DNA of 11,968 nt, from IMG/VR virus record IMGVR_UViG_2617270939_000005. One strand, given 5' to 3'. This DNA comes from a virus. Taxonomy: Duplodnaviria; Heunggongvirae; Uroviricota; Caudoviricetes. The notes under the pieces were generated by a model. That model searched no databases. It was not told where the DNA came from and was given only the letters and a program-made list of their open reading frames with translations. Below, piece by piece: positions 3,466-11,968 of this stretch. The translations under genes were made by a program, and so were the position numbers. Numbering within the stretch: the first letter of the stretch is position 1; each line of letters begins with the position of its first letter.

Positions 3466-3737
3466 GATTCAAAGCCTCCACTGTCAGATGCAGCCCGTTT
3501 GCAGGCTTCGTATTCTTCGCGCTGGCGTTGGCATACCAGAGCATAAAGCTCGGCGGCCATCGCATTAACACGTTCGTCACTGATACCATTGCGGCGCATC
3601 AGCCCCAGCAGCTTACGAAATTTAGCTTCAAGCTCAGGCTCTCCGGTATCCATTACCCACTGTTTCAGGTCAGCGAGTGCGCCAGTCATTGGTGGCGGCT
3701 CGATGTACCGCCACCTTAATTTAATCGTGGTTATCAT
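3438..3737 (-). CDS. Hypothetical protein, 99 aa (start revised to the first ATG)
   Basis: The track ORF 3438..3785 begins with TTG. The first ATG at 3735-3737 has GAGGA 8 nt upstream and gives MITTIKLRWRYIEPPP.... Overlaps the upstream gene's end (3721) by 17 nt. Confidence 0.5.
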   Translation of the reverse strand: MITTIKLRWRYIEPPPMTGALADLKQWVMDTGEPELEAKFRKLLGLMRRNGISDERVNAMAAELYALVCQRQREEYEACKRAASDSGGFESWLHGQTNY

Positions 3738-4708: not shown

Positions 4709-5704
4709 TTATGCAGCTTGTCGGAAATTTATAACGCAGTCAGGGCGGCGCAGCCCAACATTGAACAGGCGATATGAGTCCATCACCATTGTCATTTCGC
4801 GTTCATCATCCCACTGGCGATTGATAACGCTCTGCGCTTCGACTGTCACAAGTACAGACGCAGGCCGGAACAGCGTCGCCCGTGTCAGCGCTTCCCCTGC
4901 GGTCACATCATAATCAGCGCCCAGTTCATGCGCGGTAATGGCTTCCTGCGGGTAACTGTTCAGCTCAATAACTCGCACCCCAGCGACATAGCCAACGCGA
5001 CGCCATGCGTAATCATTGCCACTATCCCGGCTGTAACGGACGTTCATCAACTTCTTATGTTCCATCAGGATGCTGAACCAAGCTGGGTCGATGAGAAGGC
5101 ACAGCTCCGCCACCGGAATATCTTTTTCAGTTAGGAATCGATTAACAGCAGCTTTAATAGCGTGAACCAGTTCGTTAGCCGCATCCTCTTCGCTCCCCGT
5201 TGTCAGGTCGAGCGAGACAACATTATCCGTCAGCGGGTTAAACGTTGGTTGCAACGTAGGCGGCGGTACAAAGTCAGTCGCTTTGATTAGCTGGATAGTG
5301 TGCGCTTCGTCGTAGAACTTTGCATGGGCTGTCCCCATGTTGCGGCTCAGCTCTGCGCGAAAGGTGGGCGCTGTCCAGTCGTCTTGATAGTCAATCGGGA
5401 TGCGGATATAGCTCAGCGTATCCACAGAGATAATCAGCTTGTCCGACTTAACGGCGGTAGGCTCCAGCGATTGCCCTGCGGTTCTGCCCTTCACCTCCAG
5501 ATCTCCGCTCAGGCGGTCTACACGATACTGATTACTGTTTTTCAGCGGCTTGTATGTGCTCAGCCCCTCGGCGAGAAACACGCTCTTTGCCTCAAGGCGG
5601 GTCTGAACGTCCCGGTCATACGCTTCAATGTGAATGTCGTTGTCAGCATCTACACCGCCCCAGTGCGGGCGGAATTGGTCAGGGGTATAAACATTGTCAG
5701 TCAT
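4709..5704 (-). CDS. Putative major capsid protein (lambda gpE-like family, tentative), 331 aa
   Basis: ATG at 5702-5704 with GGGAG 9 nt upstream. Size and two segments (LLIDPAWFSIL and the C-terminal W-DDEREMTMVMDS...RRPDCVINF) loosely resemble lambda E-type capsid proteins as I remember them. The resemblance is from memory and not verified by alignment. Confidence 0.5.
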   Translation of the reverse strand: MTDNVYTPDQFRPHWGGVDADNDIHIEAYDRDVQTRLEAKSVFLAEGLSTYKPLKNSNQYRVDRLSGDLEVKGRTAGQSLEPTAVKSDKLIISVDTLSYIRIPIDYQDDWTAPTFRAELSRNMGTAHAKFYDEAHTIQLIKATDFVPPPTLQPTFNPLTDNVVSLDLTTGSEEDAANELVHAIKAAVNRFLTEKDIPVAELCLLIDPAWFSILMEHKKLMNVRYSRDSGNDYAWRRVGYVAGVRVIELNSYPQEAITAHELGADYDVTAGEALTRATLFRPASVLVTVEAQSVINRQWDDEREMTMVMDSYRLFNVGLRRPDCVINFRQAA

Positions 5705-5772
5705 AGAAATAGCTCCCGCGCCAGCGTTAGCCAGCGCGATTTATGGAAAAGGGGAAAAGAGAATGGGATGAA

Positions 5773-6120
5773 TCAGGCAGCAGCTTTTTCAGCCGCGATC
5801 TCAAGAATCAGGCCGATAAGCGCGAAGGCAGGCCAATGGGGATTAAGCTCGTGCAGGTGCGCAACGCCCCCACCAAAAGCATCGCGCATATCAGCACCAG
5901 AGATGCCCGCGCGTTTGGCCGCCCGGCGCAGCAATCGCAGCTCGGAGCCGGGAACATACGCCGAGGGCATACGCACGCCGAAGCGTGAGGCGAGCCGCCG
6001 CCAGTGCGCTTCGTCAGCAAAGTCCTGCTTAAGCTGGCTGGCGTTGGCTTTCCAGTGTTCAATCCTCGCGCTACGGGCAGCCCTAGCCGCTGCCACGTTT
6101 TCAGGTGTCAGTAAGGTCAT
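5773..6120 (-). CDS. Hypothetical protein, 115 aa
   Basis: ATG at 6118-6120 and stop at 5773-5775. Arg/Ala-rich, predicted helical, with only a weak ribosome-binding site. Lies in high-GC DNA where antisense ORFs are common, but it fills the gap between two well-supported genes on the same strand. Confidence 0.5.
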   Translation of the reverse strand: MTLLTPENVAAARAARSARIEHWKANASQLKQDFADEAHWRRLASRFGVRMPSAYVPGSELRLLRRAAKRAGISGADMRDAFGGGVAHLHELNPHWPAFALIGLILEIAAEKAAA

Positions 6121-6279
6121 TGTCAGATCTCAATGCAAAGTGGGTTTATGTGTGGTGTTTGAGAGGTAATTTCGCGTTTTACAGGTGCAGGTATACGAAT
6201 GTACATCTGGCGATGTACAACGCGATTCAGGCTCTAAAACGTAAGGTTAAGACGTGGGGAAGACAGGACAGGCGATTGC

Positions 6280-7806
6280 TTAACGGCCAGCGCGTTTGCC
6301 AGCGGAGCGCTGCGCAACCAGAGCGCGGTATTGATCGTCGTACTGGCGATGGCCGGGGCCATACCCTGATTGCTGCGCCCACTGCGAAAGCTGATCATAC
6401 GCTGCAATAAACTCAGCATGAGACATACCAACAGGTTGCGAGGCAGGCTGGCCGTATGGGTTCCCCTGTGATGGGACATAACCAGTCGCAGTGCCTGCGA
6501 CCATACGCTCTTGCAGATAATGAACCGCCCGCTGCATCTGCGCAGGGTCGCCAGACATAACCATCCGTTCAAGGGTTGATTGCGTCCCGGCGTCGAGCGT
6601 GCCAGCGTACTGCAACATCGCGTCAACTGTCCCCTGCCCTAGCTGGCTTTCGACAGACTGGTGAAACTGCCCCATCAGCCCATGAAGTTCAGGAGTCAAC
6701 TCAACAGTAGTGCCATCCTGTAATTGCAGCGTGTCGCCCACTTGCGCAGCAACATCAATCTGCTGGTCTTGCTGGTTGGCAAAGTTACTTTCGTTCCAGC
6801 TTTGATTAATGTTCGCTGGCTGCGTTTTCAGGAAATCAGCATCAGGTGTTGTCTGGTCGAATCTGCTAGCGCCGTTGTCAGCGCCTACAGGTGCGGCCAT
6901 GTACGGCGATTGCTGCGGCGCAGTATCAGCGCCCGAAAGGTACGGATTAACATTCTGGTCAGCCAGCACATCACTACCACGGGAGAAGATCGCATCAGCA
7001 ACAGACAACTGCCCCGGCCTCCACTCCAGCCCATCGGGTGGCAACAGGCTAACGCGTGCGTTTCGGTCACAGCGAACCAGCGGGCGAAACTCATAAGAGG
7101 CTGTATTCAGTGACGGCACAGACGGCGACACTGCCAAGCCGTTTGGGTCACAATGATGATTTGTACTGTTAAATTTATCCTCGGTAGGTTTCGACTCTCC
7201 ACACCACAATTGACGAAACTCCGCTGAGTCCCCGTAGCGTTTGAAATCTGAATTGCGCATCGCTTCCAGTTTATTCATGCCCCTGTTGATGCGGTGTATA
7301 GTCTTCTCATCACAAATCAGGAACTCGCGGCAGGCTTTGAGAAAAGCATTCTGCCCGGTTGTCGATGCCGAAACGGCGTGCTCGCGCGGTTTCAATGCGG
7401 CATCATCTACGCGAACACCGGGAAAATCAGGCGGCAGCGGGTCAGCATACCGAGCAGGCTTCTTGTTGAGCCACATTTCTATCTCAGCGCGTCGGCAATG
7501 AATTGCGTCACCGGGCTGGATGACTTGCCGCAACCCCGTGTCAGAGCGCTGTTTTTGCTTCTTCGGTTGAACACCATGCAGCGCTCGCCATTCCCGCAGG
7601 GTCATAGCGGAGCCATCAGCATTGTAATAAAACTCTTCGGTCTTCGTGTTGTATGCCGCCTTAACGGGTTTATGCTTTATCGGGCATATCTTGGAACGCC
7701 GAATAACAATCCCGTCAGCGACCATTTGCTGTACATCTGCGTTTGCGGTATTGAGCGGGTCAGCGTCGGCAGCCTGCGCAAGCAAACGGCGTAGGTTCGT
7801 TGGCAT
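6280..7806 (-). CDS. Hypothetical protein, 508 aa: N-terminal region with HTH-like segments, C-terminal half Gln/Gly/Ala-rich low complexity
   Basis: ATG at 7804-7806 with GGAG 8 nt upstream; first gene of the minus-strand operon. Segments AMTLREWRALHGV and QVIQPGDAIHCRRAEIEMWL look like DNA-binding (AlpA/HTH-like) motifs. The C-terminal ~200 residues are Q/G/A/P-rich. No Walker A or protease motif seen. Confidence 0.7.
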   Translation of the reverse strand: MPTNLRRLLAQAADADPLNTANADVQQMVADGIVIRRSKICPIKHKPVKAAYNTKTEEFYYNADGSAMTLREWRALHGVQPKKQKQRSDTGLRQVIQPGDAIHCRRAEIEMWLNKKPARYADPLPPDFPGVRVDDAALKPREHAVSASTTGQNAFLKACREFLICDEKTIHRINRGMNKLEAMRNSDFKRYGDSAEFRQLWCGESKPTEDKFNSTNHHCDPNGLAVSPSVPSLNTASYEFRPLVRCDRNARVSLLPPDGLEWRPGQLSVADAIFSRGSDVLADQNVNPYLSGADTAPQQSPYMAAPVGADNGASRFDQTTPDADFLKTQPANINQSWNESNFANQQDQQIDVAAQVGDTLQLQDGTTVELTPELHGLMGQFHQSVESQLGQGTVDAMLQYAGTLDAGTQSTLERMVMSGDPAQMQRAVHYLQERMVAGTATGYVPSQGNPYGQPASQPVGMSHAEFIAAYDQLSQWAQQSGYGPGHRQYDDQYRALVAQRSAGKRAGR

Positions 7807-7880
7807 GGTGAAATCTCCAAAATTAAGGTGAGTTTAGAACGAGGCGCAGGACGGCAGCGCCGAGCTGCCCGTAGAGAGAA

Positions 7881-7947
7881 TTTCATGTCAGCAGTGACGT
7901 TGAATGTTCTGTCCCTCTTTAGTAGTGACTTTCATGTAGGTCACTAC
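7881..7947. promoter_or_regulatory. Operator-like repeat cluster upstream of the minus-strand operon
   Basis: Perfect 8-bp inverted repeat GTAGTGAC (7922-7929) and GTCACTAC (7940-7947) with a 10-bp spacer TTTCATGTAG. The motifs TTTCATGT and AGTGAC both recur at 7881-7898. Located 75-140 bp upstream of the 508-aa gene start. Confidence 0.35.
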
Positions 7948-8210
7948 GTATGCACAAGCGAGTGGTGTTCGTTTTGCCACAGTAGAAACTCTAATTTGAT
8001 TATTTTTTAATCAACACCTTTGTAAGCCTTGCCCTGTCTGACTTGATGAATGATTTGCTGATAACTTTCAGTAGGTTTGTTGGGATGCTGGGATGTAAGG
8101 GGTTATAAGCGGCATTGTGAGTACCATATCCCAATATAGTACCGTACCACTACTCTATCCCCGCCGCGTTGACTGCCTGGCAAGCACGGTTGCGTGGAGG
8201 GCCGAGCATC

Positions 8211-8260
8211 ACAGCGGGCGAAGGCCGGGAATGAGCCAAAGGCGATGGAGCGGGCTGGAG
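8211..8260. repeat. Degenerate copies of the tRNA-Gly 3' end (relic att-type direct repeats)
   Basis: AGCGGGCGAAGG at 8213-8224 is identical to 888-899 of the tRNA fragment, and TGGAGCGGGC at 8246-8255 is identical to 885-894; both are in the same orientation as the 885-912 repeat. The surrounding 8200-8300 is purine-rich with recurring GAGC...AGCG units. Confidence 0.45.
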
Positions 8261-8629
8261 CATAGCGAGAAGCGCAGCCAGTGTAGAGCGAAAAGCGATA
8301 ACACTGATTAGGAGAAGGGATGAAAGGGAAGAACCCTTTTCTGTACATGTATTTTAAATGCAACTTTAAAGGTAAAACGAAGGTGTTGCCCTGCTTCAAA
8401 TCTAGCTGAGTGATTGGACAACACAGCCTTTGATCCCTTCCCCTGCCCCATCCCTCGAATTGTTCAGTGATAAATCACATTCACAATCTGATCTTGATAC
8501 TCATCGTCTGGCACGGCTAAAGCCCCGCCATCTCTTCATATCAAGAGCCGCAAGTAATACGGAAATACATTATAAATCATACCATTACGAGATTAGGCAT
8601 AACATAAATATCTGATATCAATACAAAAG

Positions 8630-8700: not shown

Positions 8701-9329
8701 TCTGTAACGCTGGCGGACAGCTCACGTTTGATACGGTAGAACGTTGCCCGGCTTATCCCGGCAGCTTTCATGATGTGCTCTGGTTTATTCCCAACGGTAA
8801 GCATAGCGCGGACAGTTTCACGGGCGCTCTCATCCTTAGACTTCCCGTTATATTTCCCCTCGGCTTTGGCACGCTTGATGCCCTGCGCTTGGCGTGCTCT
8901 GCGTGTCTCGTAGTCCACTCGTGCCATCGTAGCGAGGATATCAATCAGCATTGCGTTAACAGCTCTCAGGATGCCCTCTGTAAGCTCTGACGCCGTATCG
9001 TTCAGTAGTTGCCATGAGGTTGGCAGGTCAACGGCAACGATCACCAGTCCCTTATCCTGAATCCTCTGTTTCAGTGTCGCCCATTCCTTTTGCGTAAGGC
9101 GGCTTAGCCTGTCGATGCTCTCGACAAGCAAGACCTCTCCGGCCTGCGCATCATCCAGCAAGCGCATTAGTTCAGGACGCGCCAGCCTCGCACCGCTGGC
9201 GTTCTCGATGTACTCCGCCCGTACAGGCCAGCCCCGATCACTGGCGAACTCTCGCAGCAAGCCCAGCGCCCGGTCTGCGTGTTGCTCTGATGTACTGGCG
9301 CGGCAATAGATAAGCGCATTGTGTGCCAT
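8697..9329 (-). CDS. Small serine recombinase (resolvase/invertase family), 210 aa
   Basis: N-terminal catalytic motif YCRASTSEQ (the Y-x-R-x-S-T-x-x-Q serine recombinase signature), the VESIDRLSR motif and a C-terminal HTH (AAGISRATFYRIKRE). ATG at 9327-9329 with GGGGGA upstream. Confidence 0.85.
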   Translation of the reverse strand: MAHNALIYCRASTSEQHADRALGLLREFASDRGWPVRAEYIENASGARLARPELMRLLDDAQAGEVLLVESIDRLSRLTQKEWATLKQRIQDKGLVIVAVDLPTSWQLLNDTASELTEGILRAVNAMLIDILATMARVDYETRRARQAQGIKRAKAEGKYNGKSKDESARETVRAMLTVGNKPEHIMKAAGISRATFYRIKRELSASVTE

Positions 9330-10046
9330 GCTTCCCCCTAAGTCTCAATGAAATATCACAGCAAGACCTATAAGAGATCACATCAATAATGTGTAGTCAA
9401 TAGAGTTTTATAGATAGTCAAATGAGACAGTGTGTCTATGTCTTTATCAGGTATACCCGAAAGAGACTGGCACCGCCCCACAGCAGCATTCCCCGGCACA
9501 TCCAGCGAACACAGCGTAGAGCGCACGCAGCAGATCAGCACGGCACCGCCACGATCTCGAAATCACAAAGGCATTGAATCACACATTGGAAGCACAGAAC
9601 GCAGCACAGAGCGATACAGATCGTTTTAGAGGGATGTACAGATACACAGTGAAAGGCAGATGATCGCAGCACTCGTCCCACACGGTTATTCAGCAACAGC
9701 AATCAGCCAGCATCTCGCTCAGTAGCACGCTCCTGTAATGCTTGTCTCGGATGAGCAAAATCTTAGGGTTTCTCAGCGACCCCTGACGCGCGGGCACGCA
9801 CATGCACACGGGGGCGCGGGCGAGCTATAGAGTTGAGGGAGGGGCAACCATAAGCGTGCAATTTTCAAGCTGGGACTTTTAACAGTGGGATTGTGGGGCT
9901 GTTTTGCATTCAGAGAGTGAGGCTGTGGGGGAGCCCTCCTTGAACCAAATAATGCGAAACTGATCATTCTTCCACGTAGCTTAGGCCACTTTGCATGGAT
10001 AATTAGCACCAAACACAGCAGCCAGTTTAAGAGAAATGCGCGACAT

Positions 10047-10265
10047 CTACCGTCTGCGTTTACCCCAGCGCTGCATTATGGCTCTGTGTGCTTCATCCGC
10101 TGACCATTCAATAGGTACAACAACGTGTACAGGCATTTCATCGCCAGAGGGGGCACCACGTAAATGGACTCTATACCCTAGTTTATTAAGTTCTACCTCG
10201 GACATCGGTGATATAACCTCGCCGCTATGGCTGCCGCCAACAAACTCAGCTTTAAAATCCAACAT
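10047..10265 (-). CDS. Hypothetical protein, 72 aa (doubtful)
   Basis: ATG at 10263-10265 lies directly downstream of a G9 run on the minus strand (C9 at 10267-10275 on plus) that could serve as a Shine-Dalgarno-like element. Its composition is more protein-like than the overlapping plus-strand ORF 10036..10359 (Ser/Thr/Pro-rich). No homology recognised. Confidence 0.35.
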   Translation of the reverse strand: MLDFKAEFVGGSHSGEVISPMSEVELNKLGYRVHLRGAPSGDEMPVHVVVPIEWSADEAHRAIMQRWGKRRR

Positions 10266-10266
10266 G

Positions 10267-10275
10267 CCCCCCCCC
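10267..10275. repeat. Homopolymeric C9 tract (G9 on minus strand)
   Basis: Nine consecutive C read directly at 10267-10275, immediately 5' of the 72-aa minus-strand ORF start and inside the alternative plus-strand ORF. Confidence 0.9.
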
Positions 10276-10355
10276 TACACACTAACAAGAATCATTGAAG
10301 GTGTATCACCCAGCAACTACGCTGGGCAGAACATCACCTCGGACTATCAATCAAC

Positions 10356-10814
10356 TTAGTATCGCTTTGTGTCTCGTAGTATTACAGACAGTAACCACCA
10401 CCATTGGCGTTTGATCCAACAAACATCACTGAACATCTTGCCGTCAGATGTTTTGATATAAACCCCGCCACGATGATGCACTTTGTTGTGATGAGCCTTA
10501 TTTATGAATGGCACGTTCAAGACCATTTCGTCTCGTGCTTTCAATCTTTTTGGCAGCATCGGTGTGATCATGTTCTCGTCCGAATATTCGTCGGATAACA
10601 TTCTAAGGCGTCCACTGGCTGTTACCACACCGGCTGCACTCAACGTTACATCGTGTGCGCTTATGTTCGAAACGTATATCCTGTCCTCGTGCTGATCACA
10701 TCCGAGATAAAGCCTTAGCGATGTTCTGGATTTTAGTAATTGAAATACGGACAAAGCAAAACCCGCCCACGCCGCGATCCCTGTCCAGTTATCTGTTTGG
10801 GTGATCCAAGTCAT
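10356..10814 (-). CDS. Hypothetical single-pass membrane protein, ~152 aa
   Basis: The track ORF starts with TTG at 10815-10817; the ATG at 10812-10814 overlaps the upstream gene's TGA (TGATG), indicating coupling. The N-terminal stretch WTGIAAWAGFALSVFQLL is a probable transmembrane helix, followed by a soluble domain with a His/Lys-rich segment (KAHHNKVHHRGG). Confidence 0.6.
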   Translation of the reverse strand: MTWITQTDNWTGIAAWAGFALSVFQLLKSRTSLRLYLGCDQHEDRIYVSNISAHDVTLSAAGVVTASGRLRMLSDEYSDENMITPMLPKRLKARDEMVLNVPFINKAHHNKVHHRGGVYIKTSDGKMFSDVCWIKRQWWWLLSVILRDTKRY

Positions 10815-11041
10815 CAAGGCTGCATCCCCTTCGACATAAGATACTTAACGATCCCTTCTCGTTGCCTATTACTCAGCTGAAAACATTTGTCTAGTTGAGA
10901 TAAAACCTGCTCGACATCATCTGCCAAGATGGCACTAGCTGCACGAGCGGGGAGATCTCCCTGAATTTTGATAGTGAAATACCCTGAAGATATTGATAGC
11001 TTCAAAAAACAACCTGCTGAGAACTCGTAACTCTCGCTCAT
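10814..11041 (-). CDS. Hypothetical protein, 75 aa, first gene of the minus-strand operon
   Basis: ATG at 11039-11041 with AGAGG about 6 nt upstream; stop overlaps the start of the membrane protein gene. No motif recognised. Confidence 0.55.
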   Translation of the reverse strand: MSESYEFSAGCFLKLSISSGYFTIKIQGDLPARAASAILADDVEQVLSQLDKCFQLSNRQREGIVKYLMSKGMQP

Positions 11042-11113
11042 AACCGCCTCTGTTGCCAGTTTTTCAGTAAACTGACAGTATATTCCTGAACCTTTATTAC
11101 ATCACGCGCACAC

Positions 11114-11125
11114 AAAAAAAAAAAA
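11114..11125. repeat. Homopolymeric A12 tract in a divergent intergenic region
   Basis: Twelve consecutive A read directly at 11114-11125, between the divergently oriented 75-aa gene (start 11041) and 259-aa gene (start 11189). Confidence 0.9.
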
Positions 11126-11188
11126 TGACCGACTCAGTTCGCAAATTTCTGGATAATCTATCCATACAATAATTATCAAGGATAAGTT

Positions 11189-11968
11189 ATGTCATCAGAT
11201 AACTTCGTGACATTTTGGCTTGCTAAAGTAGATCGGCCCTATTTTCTTGAACCTCACGAATTTTATGTTTCGGAAGCAAGACGGAGACTTTTGTCTCAGT
11301 TTGGGGATCTGACCCAAGAGGCGGAGGAGCGAGAGAAACAGTTTCTGGAGTATACCGCTGAGCATTTCAATCCTGATTTTGACGACCCAATGGCAGCCTA
11401 TGAGCAAGCATATGAGGAGGGTGTAAACTACGTCTGGTCACTTATTGAAATGCAAGAAACTGTTCTTTTGGCAGTAACTGCGGGTATGTATCACCAGTTC
11501 GATAAAAAGTTACGAGAAAAAACGATCAGAGAATTGTCTCATTGGTGTGATAAAGAGATCATTACACCAATGGTTTGGGATTTAAATTTTGATCAACTGT
11601 TGAAACTGCTCGAGTGGATCGGTCTCAAGATAGATGAAACTGATTATGGCGATAAGCTCAAAGCGTGCGCATTAGTCGTAAATGTGTACAAACATGGTGA
11701 TGGAAATTCTCACCGCCTCCTATCATCAACTCATCCAGAATATTACCCTCATCCTACTGGTATATGCGGCAGACATATCAATCCTACTCATGATGATCTG
11801 CATGTAACAGAAGAACAGTTTGTTGAATTTGCTGATGCAATAACAACATTTTGGAAAGCAATACCAGAATACTGCTATTACTCCGAACTGTCGGATGAGC
11901 CAGAGTGGTTAATTAAGCTTGTAAAAAAGAGCGAAAAGAAGTTAAGAAAAGGAAATACAAGGCCATAA
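11189..11968 (+). CDS. Hypothetical protein, 259 aa, AT-rich gene; contains an R-x5-H segment (HRLLSSTH) reminiscent of HEPN motifs
   Basis: ATG at 11189 with AAGGA 6 nt upstream; the TAA stop coincides with the window end (11966-11968). A sampled 60-nt block gives ~38% G+C. The HEPN suggestion rests on a single short motif and is speculative. Confidence 0.7.
   Translation: MSSDNFVTFWLAKVDRPYFLEPHEFYVSEARRRLLSQFGDLTQEAEEREKQFLEYTAEHFNPDFDDPMAAYEQAYEEGVNYVWSLIEMQETVLLAVTAGMYHQFDKKLREKTIRELSHWCDKEIITPMVWDLNFDQLLKLLEWIGLKIDETDYGDKLKACALVVNVYKHGDGNSHRLLSSTHPEYYPHPTGICGRHINPTHDDLHVTEEQFVEFADAITTFWKAIPEYCYYSELSDEPEWLIKLVKKSEKKLRKGNTRP

Follow-up and report, generated by a model that had tools for sequence, protein, structure and literature searches.

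Spacer-type phase variation is known from the TA repeats of Haemophilus influenzae hifA/hifB, the poly-C/G tracts of Neisseria opc and porA and the poly-A tract of Mycoplasma hyorhinis vlp. Simple-repeat contingency loci are rarely used by Escherichia coli, in whose non-coding DNA mononucleotide repeats are reportedly polymorphic among strains (Gur-Arie et al. 2000; Diamant et al. 2004). A-rich DNA next to promoters is familiar in this species as UP elements and upstream A-tracts, as at rrnB P1, through the work of Ross (1993), Estrem (1998, 1999) and Aiyar (1998). In Helicobacter pylori, T or A tracts of at least nine bases next to the -35 element, at sabA and at hp_0350/pyrG, act as rheostats (Aberg et al. 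2014, PMC4081817). Between the divergent genes hp_0350 and pyrG, changing A9 to A14 changed the activity of the hp_0350 promoter, also in E. coli; the tract lies 3 nucleotides (nt) from the hp_0350 -35 element, whereas the pyrG promoter, at a distance of 30 nt, did not respond (PMC4081817). Here we describe a tract of twelve A between two divergent transcription units in the 11,968-nt stretch of DNA recorded as IMG/VR entry IMGVR_UViG_2617270939_000005 (the window), which is a chromosomal island of E. coli that bears an integrase and is located at the glyU tRNA locus. The sabA T-tract of H. pylori, and especially the divergent hp_0350/pyrG case, appears to be its closest documented counterpart. 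The tract is rare, differs in length among otherwise near-identical copies of the island and is tentatively read as an upstream element tuning two back-to-back promoters.

The poly(dA.dT) tract is an uninterrupted run of exactly 12 A at 11114-11125, between C11113 and T11126. Positions 11110-11129 read acac-AAAAAAAAAAAA-tgac, in the wider context ...cgcgcacac-AAAAAAAAAAAA-tgaccgac.... Direct reading of the sequence confirmed the tract where an earlier note on this DNA had placed it, in a divergent intergenic region that spans 11042-11188 by open reading frame (ORF) coordinates (147 bp, 65% A+T). The same note had put it about 70 bp from each divergent start codon, which was right: 72 nt separate the tract from the ATG of a 75-amino-acid (aa) ORF on the minus strand (11041-11039), and 63 nt separate it from that of a 259-aa gene on the plus strand (11189). 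It is the only A or T run of at least 7 in the window, for which an independent-base model predicts 0.0013 occurrences of A12 or T12. In a control of 50 kb of unrelated chromosome from an island-carrying strain, A/T runs fell off from 51 of length 6 to 10 of length 7, 2 of length 8 and 1 of length 9, with none longer. The A12 tract is therefore a rare object and not a chance product of base composition; by extrapolation, A/T runs of 12 number a few per genome at most.

The stretch carrying the tract was present in 1 of 5426 complete E. coli genomes, and further copies were drawn from draft assemblies and metagenomes; the 259-aa protein is present on 530 contigs. Length polymorphism, the lack of which the earlier note had counted against a switch, was clearly present. 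Across 22 public copies, among which some NCBI and Logan entries may stem from the same isolate, the tract was A9 in six, A10 in one, A11 in seven and A12 in eight, on intergenic flanks (72 + 63 = 135 bp) that were 100% identical with zero mismatches. Over a wider flank of 1681 bp the copies showed 0-4 substitutions, and the exact haplotype of the window (0 substitutions) was found with A9, A11 and A12. Over 1669 bp, A9 versus A12 was the sole difference between the window and NZ_LR536431.1, a sequence that holds several frameshifted pseudogenes. At A12 the tract exceeds the minimum of nine A/T that Aberg et al. took as their search criterion (PMC4081817), and its length differs among near-identical genomes.

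Tract lengths are heritable and follow protein-variant lineages rather than scattering as noise. The protein variant P0046 was accompanied by A9 in 5 of 5 assemblies, which span two sub-haplotypes and two downstream contexts. The variant P0047 was accompanied by A11 in both copies, and both P0047 copies have ten C at a second homopolymer of the window. We infer from the near-invariant background that the mutation rate of the tract is probably higher by orders of magnitude than that of a single base, and the uniform length in the P0046 lineage speaks against extremely fast switching. In assembly GCA_026720965.1, contig ABJSDI010000003.1 (285 kb) starts at the base directly after the tract (TGACCGACTC...), and the assembly therefore broke exactly at the homopolymer.

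Taken together, the position and variability of the tract tentatively favor a slippage-prone upstream A-tract that would tune two back-to-back promoters, combining the properties of an UP element with those of a variable spacer. Replication slippage would alter the tract by single bases, as the observed range from A9 to A12 suggests. For the best promoter candidates, the tract would lie upstream of both core promoters at about -40 to -55, outside any -35/-10 spacer and in the zone usually contacted by the alpha subunits of RNA polymerase, whose C-terminal domains (alpha-CTD) may contact it. Each base pair added or lost would shift the DNA beyond the tract and rotate it by about 34 degrees relative to each core promoter. 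Whatever the tract length, the end of the run next to each core promoter would stay in place, so that a graded, rheostat-like output rather than an on/off response would be expected. One unbroken A12 is straight and stiff rather than curved, macroscopic bends requiring phased short A-tracts; spacing and phase would thus be the main routes by which length changes act.

Candidate promoters were sought with a consensus scan and with a position weight matrix (PWM) scan of both strands that allowed all spacers and used hexamer frequencies based on sigma-70 compilations; in shuffled controls, the best PWM score had a median of 9.4 bits and a 95th percentile of 12.8 bits. The best leftward site (11077-11105, minus strand) consists of GTGATG (11105-11100), a 17-nt spacer and TATACT (11082-11077). 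It scored 9.8 bits, not above shuffles, and its predicted start at about 11070 would place the tract at -44 to -55. A rightward candidate (11129-11157, plus strand) pairs a -10 element, GATAAT (11152-11157), with a poor -35 element, CCGACT (11129-11134), and scored 5.6 bits. From its predicted start at about 11164, the tract would occupy -50 to -39 and end 3 nt before the -35 position. A -10-like block (GATAAT, GATAAC, TATAAC or TAAAAT) is aligned with it in all orthologues, from which this weak candidate appears to gain some support.

Two alternative sites would instead place the tract within a transcript. The top match on the plus strand (11053-11081; 10.4 bits) combines TTGCCA, a 17-nt spacer and TGnCAGTAT, and from its predicted start at about 11088 the tract would lie in the 5' untranslated region (UTR) at +27 to +38; a similar site is found at the same alignment columns in Citrobacter. 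On the minus strand, ATGACA, an 18-nt spacer and TATTGT (11166-11195; 9.6 bits) have a predicted start at about 11159, which would put U12 in the 5' UTR of the operon headed by the 75-aa ORF. This was the sole match of the consensus scan, which returned 1 site in 700 bp versus 1.2 expected.

Orthologous loci point to the ancestral layout of this control region. The divergent trio, in which a protein of about 260 aa faces an operon for 75-aa and 152-aa proteins, is kept in Raoultella, Citrobacter, Klebsiella and metagenomic contigs and is therefore a conserved module, often with a resolvase and the actS/glyU locus next to it. Many loci with a homologue of the 259-aa gene lack the 75-aa and 152-aa genes. 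In Raoultella, Citrobacter and Klebsiella, the top minus-strand promoter candidate is TTGG[TC][TA], an 18-nt spacer and TAAAAT (10.2-12 bits), and a plus-strand candidate (ATGACA, 17-nt spacer, GAGGAT) begins at the base next to the leftward -35 element. These abutting divergent -35 hexamers fall exactly at the position of the tract in the window, where the orthologue sequence opposite A12 is AACCAAATGACAAT, so the tract is predicted to lie at the junction of two divergent promoters. Judging from this alignment, both ancestral promoters appear to have been remodelled in the E. coli version.

Several results weigh against tuning of two promoters by the tract. No promoter-like site exceeded the shuffled controls, the best scores of 10.4 and 9.8 bits standing against the median of 9.4 and the 95th percentile of 12.8 bits. 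With scores at shuffle level and 1 consensus site versus 1.2 expected, the promoter positions are therefore guesses, and the top plus-strand match and one minus-strand match place the tract in a 5' UTR. No run of at least 5 was found at the place of the tract in any of 7 orthologous intergenic regions from Raoultella, Citrobacter, Klebsiella and metagenomes, and none of at least 7 at a comparable upstream position in 80 loci of more distant 259-aa homologues; the tract thus appears to be a lineage-specific acquisition rather than a conserved device, and nothing in these comparisons shows selection for it. Changes of 1-3 bp may also have little effect, each core promoter keeping its own run end, and the stability of lengths within lineages speaks against fast switching. 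Of the regulatory role proposed in the earlier note, what stands is a polymorphic tract in a divergent control region; an effect through core promoter spacing does not, and the tract has no counterpart in the seven orthologous regions.

Nearly as likely as tuning, and a real possibility in its own right, is a neutral hypermutable run that arose in this lineage from an A-rich stretch (orthologues read CCAAATGACAATT) and random-walks in length by slippage, with no selected role or meaningful effect on expression. The absence of a homopolymer here from orthologous modules and distant homologues, the lack of a significant promoter and the stability of lengths within lineages are all consistent with such a run. 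The module also looks dispensable, being carried by that single complete E. coli genome and interrupted by an insertion sequence (IS) in the 75-aa ORF of one genome, and polymorphic mononucleotide runs in non-coding E. coli DNA are, by the reports mentioned above, a known phenomenon. Neutrality fits less well with the length of A12, which far exceeds the runs in the control sequence, or with a second rare variable run (C8-C10) 850 bp away, which is unlikely under independence; in E. coli, moreover, A-tracts this near to promoter-like elements usually influence transcription. The tract could also act after transcription, as part of the 5' UTR of the 259-aa mRNA (start at about 11088) or of the 75-aa operon mRNA (about 11159), by affecting mRNA stability, translation, Hfq or S1 binding, or polymerase slippage. 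We consider this unlikely. It would follow from the top plus-strand PWM match (TTGCCA, 10.4 bits) and from the sole consensus-scan match (ATGACA and TATTGT on the minus strand), but both sites are at shuffle level and the best promoters of the orthologues lie elsewhere. A structured 5' UTR was rejected, as both candidate UTRs folded no better than shuffles (z = -0.42 and +1.47) and left the tract unpaired; the tool scan found no terminator-like hairpin before the U-run and no terminator-like site at the tract, and there was no Rfam match at E <=1 in 9200-11300.

The earlier note had proposed that changes in tract length alter promoter element spacing and might act as an on/off or rheostat switch. 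An on/off phase switch, in which the tract lies within a -35/-10 spacer and single-base changes cross the permitted 16-18 bp, is highly improbable. The tract is long enough and polymorphic, and it lies between divergent genes like the TA repeats of H. influenzae hifA/hifB. However, neither the consensus scan nor the PWM scan found a -35/-10 pair 15-19 bp apart that brackets it on either strand, its flanks GCGCACAC and TGACCGAC contain no -35 or -10 element at that spacing, and the sole PWM match that overlaps it uses TTTTTT as the '-35' (2/6 positions, 5.1 bits). The suggested effect on core promoter spacing is thus not borne out; the tract lies outside any recognisable core promoter, which makes an on/off switch unlikely and leaves a rheostat plausible. 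It is about as improbable that the length differences are sequencing or assembly errors rather than real alleles. Homopolymers are error-prone, and the frameshifted pseudogenes of NZ_LR536431.1, the contig that breaks exactly at the tract and the possible duplication of isolates between NCBI and Logan all count in favor of an artefact. Yet A9 was recovered in six assemblies from different projects and pipelines and in two sub-haplotypes, A11 occurs with C10 in both P0047 copies, and lengths track the protein-variant lineages.

The second polymorphic homopolymer (10267-10275) is C9 in the window and C8, C9 or C10 elsewhere. It is the only other long run in the window and lies in the same module as the A tract, about 850 bp from it. 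All four combinations of A11 or A12 with C8 or C9 were seen among the copies; the C run varies independently of the A tract, and the length changes are therefore recurrent. On the minus strand it forms a G-run that stops 1 nt short of the ATG of a 72-aa ORF (10047-10265) just downstream of the 152-aa gene; this small ORF is predicted by some gene callers, has no RefSeq annotation and gave no family match. Klebsiella-type modules have an A9 run in the non-coding DNA that separates the resolvase from the ORF following the 152-aa gene (position 3696 of locus L135 and 2837 of locus L136), so homopolymers recur elsewhere in this island family.

The tRNA-proximal cargo of the island consists of the three genes that surround the tract. 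The leftward unit begins with the 75-aa ORF (10814-11041, minus strand), which is called in public assemblies and preceded by GAGG as a Shine-Dalgarno sequence 5 nt before its ATG. Its stop codon overlaps the ATG of the 152-aa gene (10356-10814, minus strand) in TGATG, so the two are probably a translationally coupled operon, and the operon label that the earlier note had given to the 75-aa gene is reasonable. The 75-aa family is tiny: an exhaustive search matched 7 representative clusters, all of about 75 aa, whereas a word-indexed search returned near-identical matches only. Its orthologues have about 52% identity and the same gene arrangement, and the ORF had no Pfam, PHROG, PADLOC or NCBIfam match and no identifiable regulator-like domain. 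The 152-aa protein has hydrophobic helices at both termini and belongs to a small family restricted to Enterobacterales; its AlphaFold model was too poor for use (predicted local distance difference test, pLDDT, of 49). In the complete genome GCA_045581885.1, an IS element with a DDE_Tnp_1 transposase lies between a truncated 75-aa ORF (71 aa) and the 152-aa gene.

The rightward gene (11189-11968, plus strand) is likewise called in public assemblies and has AAGGA 6 nt before its ATG. Its 259-aa product, described as helical, has a match in phrog_19541 but none in Pfam, PADLOC or NCBIfam, and its relatives are spread over at least 154 species of Proteobacteria and also occur on prophage-like contigs. 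A possible HEPN relationship gained no confirmation from Foldseek; by inspection, the HEPN motif R-x(4-6)-H is not among the invariant columns of the family, which include N165-V-Y-K-H169-G-x-G and H102...R109. A known defense system or family was also sought for the three proteins in PADLOC, NCBIfam and Pfam, where none was found.

At its left end, the window contains an IS903B fragment (1-384) and a ygeQ/glyU (tRNA-Gly) flank (384-912), followed by a tyrosine integrase; ARAGORN found no intact tRNA. In NZ_LR536431.1, the right end of the island runs into tRNA-Gly, actS and xdhA. Among the products of the backbone are endonuclease VII-like and HNH proteins and an invertase-type serine recombinase. 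A promoter inverted by this adjacent recombinase was considered and rejected, as no convincing inverted repeats bracket the intergenic region, and so was a phage or plasmid origin, with no DNA match in phage and plasmid collections, no tblastn match in phages and no IMG/VR pattern match. The backbone differs from that of NZ_LR536431.1 in the region 5700-8300: a 508-aa ORF of the window (6280-7806) has no Pfam match, and NZ_LR536431.1 has a DEAD/DEAH helicase and extra genes instead. The leuX (tRNA-Leu) island of E2348/69 keeps the backbone and an unannotated copy of the 152-aa gene (6001-6458, 92% identical) among different neighbors; it lacks the 75-aa and 259-aa partners and has a 182-aa hypothetical gene upstream of the 152-aa copy. 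From the serine recombinase to the 152-aa gene, a stretch of about 1 kb (9330-10356) has no RefSeq gene annotation. It showed no similarity to its counterpart in the orthologous modules, apart from 45 bp in common with the E2348/69 island, and the ORFs at 10036-10359 have no homology to those downstream of the orthologous modules.

Should the promoters prove to be tuned by tract length, E. coli would have a repeat-driven expression rheostat on a module that has been transferred horizontally and is possibly defensive. Helicobacter, Neisseria and Haemophilus offer well-documented cases of such a mechanism, for which mismatch-repair-proficient enterobacteria scarcely do. A more far-reaching proposal, which we regard as doubtful, is that two independent hypermutable homopolymers (A9-12 and G8-10) give stochastic tuning or gating of a mobile three-gene module centered on a HEPN-like protein (a candidate toxin or anti-phage system), as a form of bet-hedging on costly defense cargo. 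If the tract is neutral, it is a rare unstable homopolymer that calls for caution in assembly and variant calling at this locus. The A tract and the C run also serve as fast-evolving markers that separate otherwise identical copies of the island. A polymorphic homopolymer near a promoter is a known phenomenon, and this one is noteworthy mainly for its rarity in E. coli and for the second variable run in the same module.

The locus resembles each of the systems introduced above in part. With spacer-type phase variation it shares a simple repeat in a promoter region that changes by slippage, and hifA/hifB is likewise a divergent pair served by one repeat; in those systems, however, the repeat is itself the -35/-10 spacer and gives on/off or three-level expression, whereas no hexamers bracket the tract here. 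Like an UP element, it would present an A-rich run at about -38 to -59 of the candidate starts, and if GATAAT at 11152-11157 is the -10 element, the sequence at the proximal subsite resembles AAAAAARNR; UP elements, by contrast, do not vary in length, and a mapped start and alpha-CTD dependence define them, where this locus offers candidate starts. As an intergenic run of strain-dependent length, the tract also resembles the mononucleotide repeats of E. coli, on whose homopolymer counts and polymorphism we found nothing directly usable in the literature; those repeats are mostly <=10 bp and lie in intergenic regions of the core genome, whereas the present run is an A12 in a mobile island that has another variable run nearby. 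H. pylori differs in that start sites were mapped and the effect of length was measured there, and in that its tracts are conserved across strains and species, while the A12 tract is absent from orthologues. H. pylori also lacks MutS/MutL mismatch repair and has many such tracts, whereas in repair-proficient E. coli they are rare. The likeness is nevertheless closest here: an A/T tract of at least nine bases stands between divergent genes, just upstream of a -35 position (a candidate one at this locus), and varies in length from strain to strain by slippage; the proposed effect is graded and would depend on how the core promoter is aligned with A/T-rich elements upstream that the alpha subunit of RNA polymerase contacts. 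The hp_0350 tract lies 3 nt upstream of its -35 element, the same distance as predicted here for the 259-aa gene.
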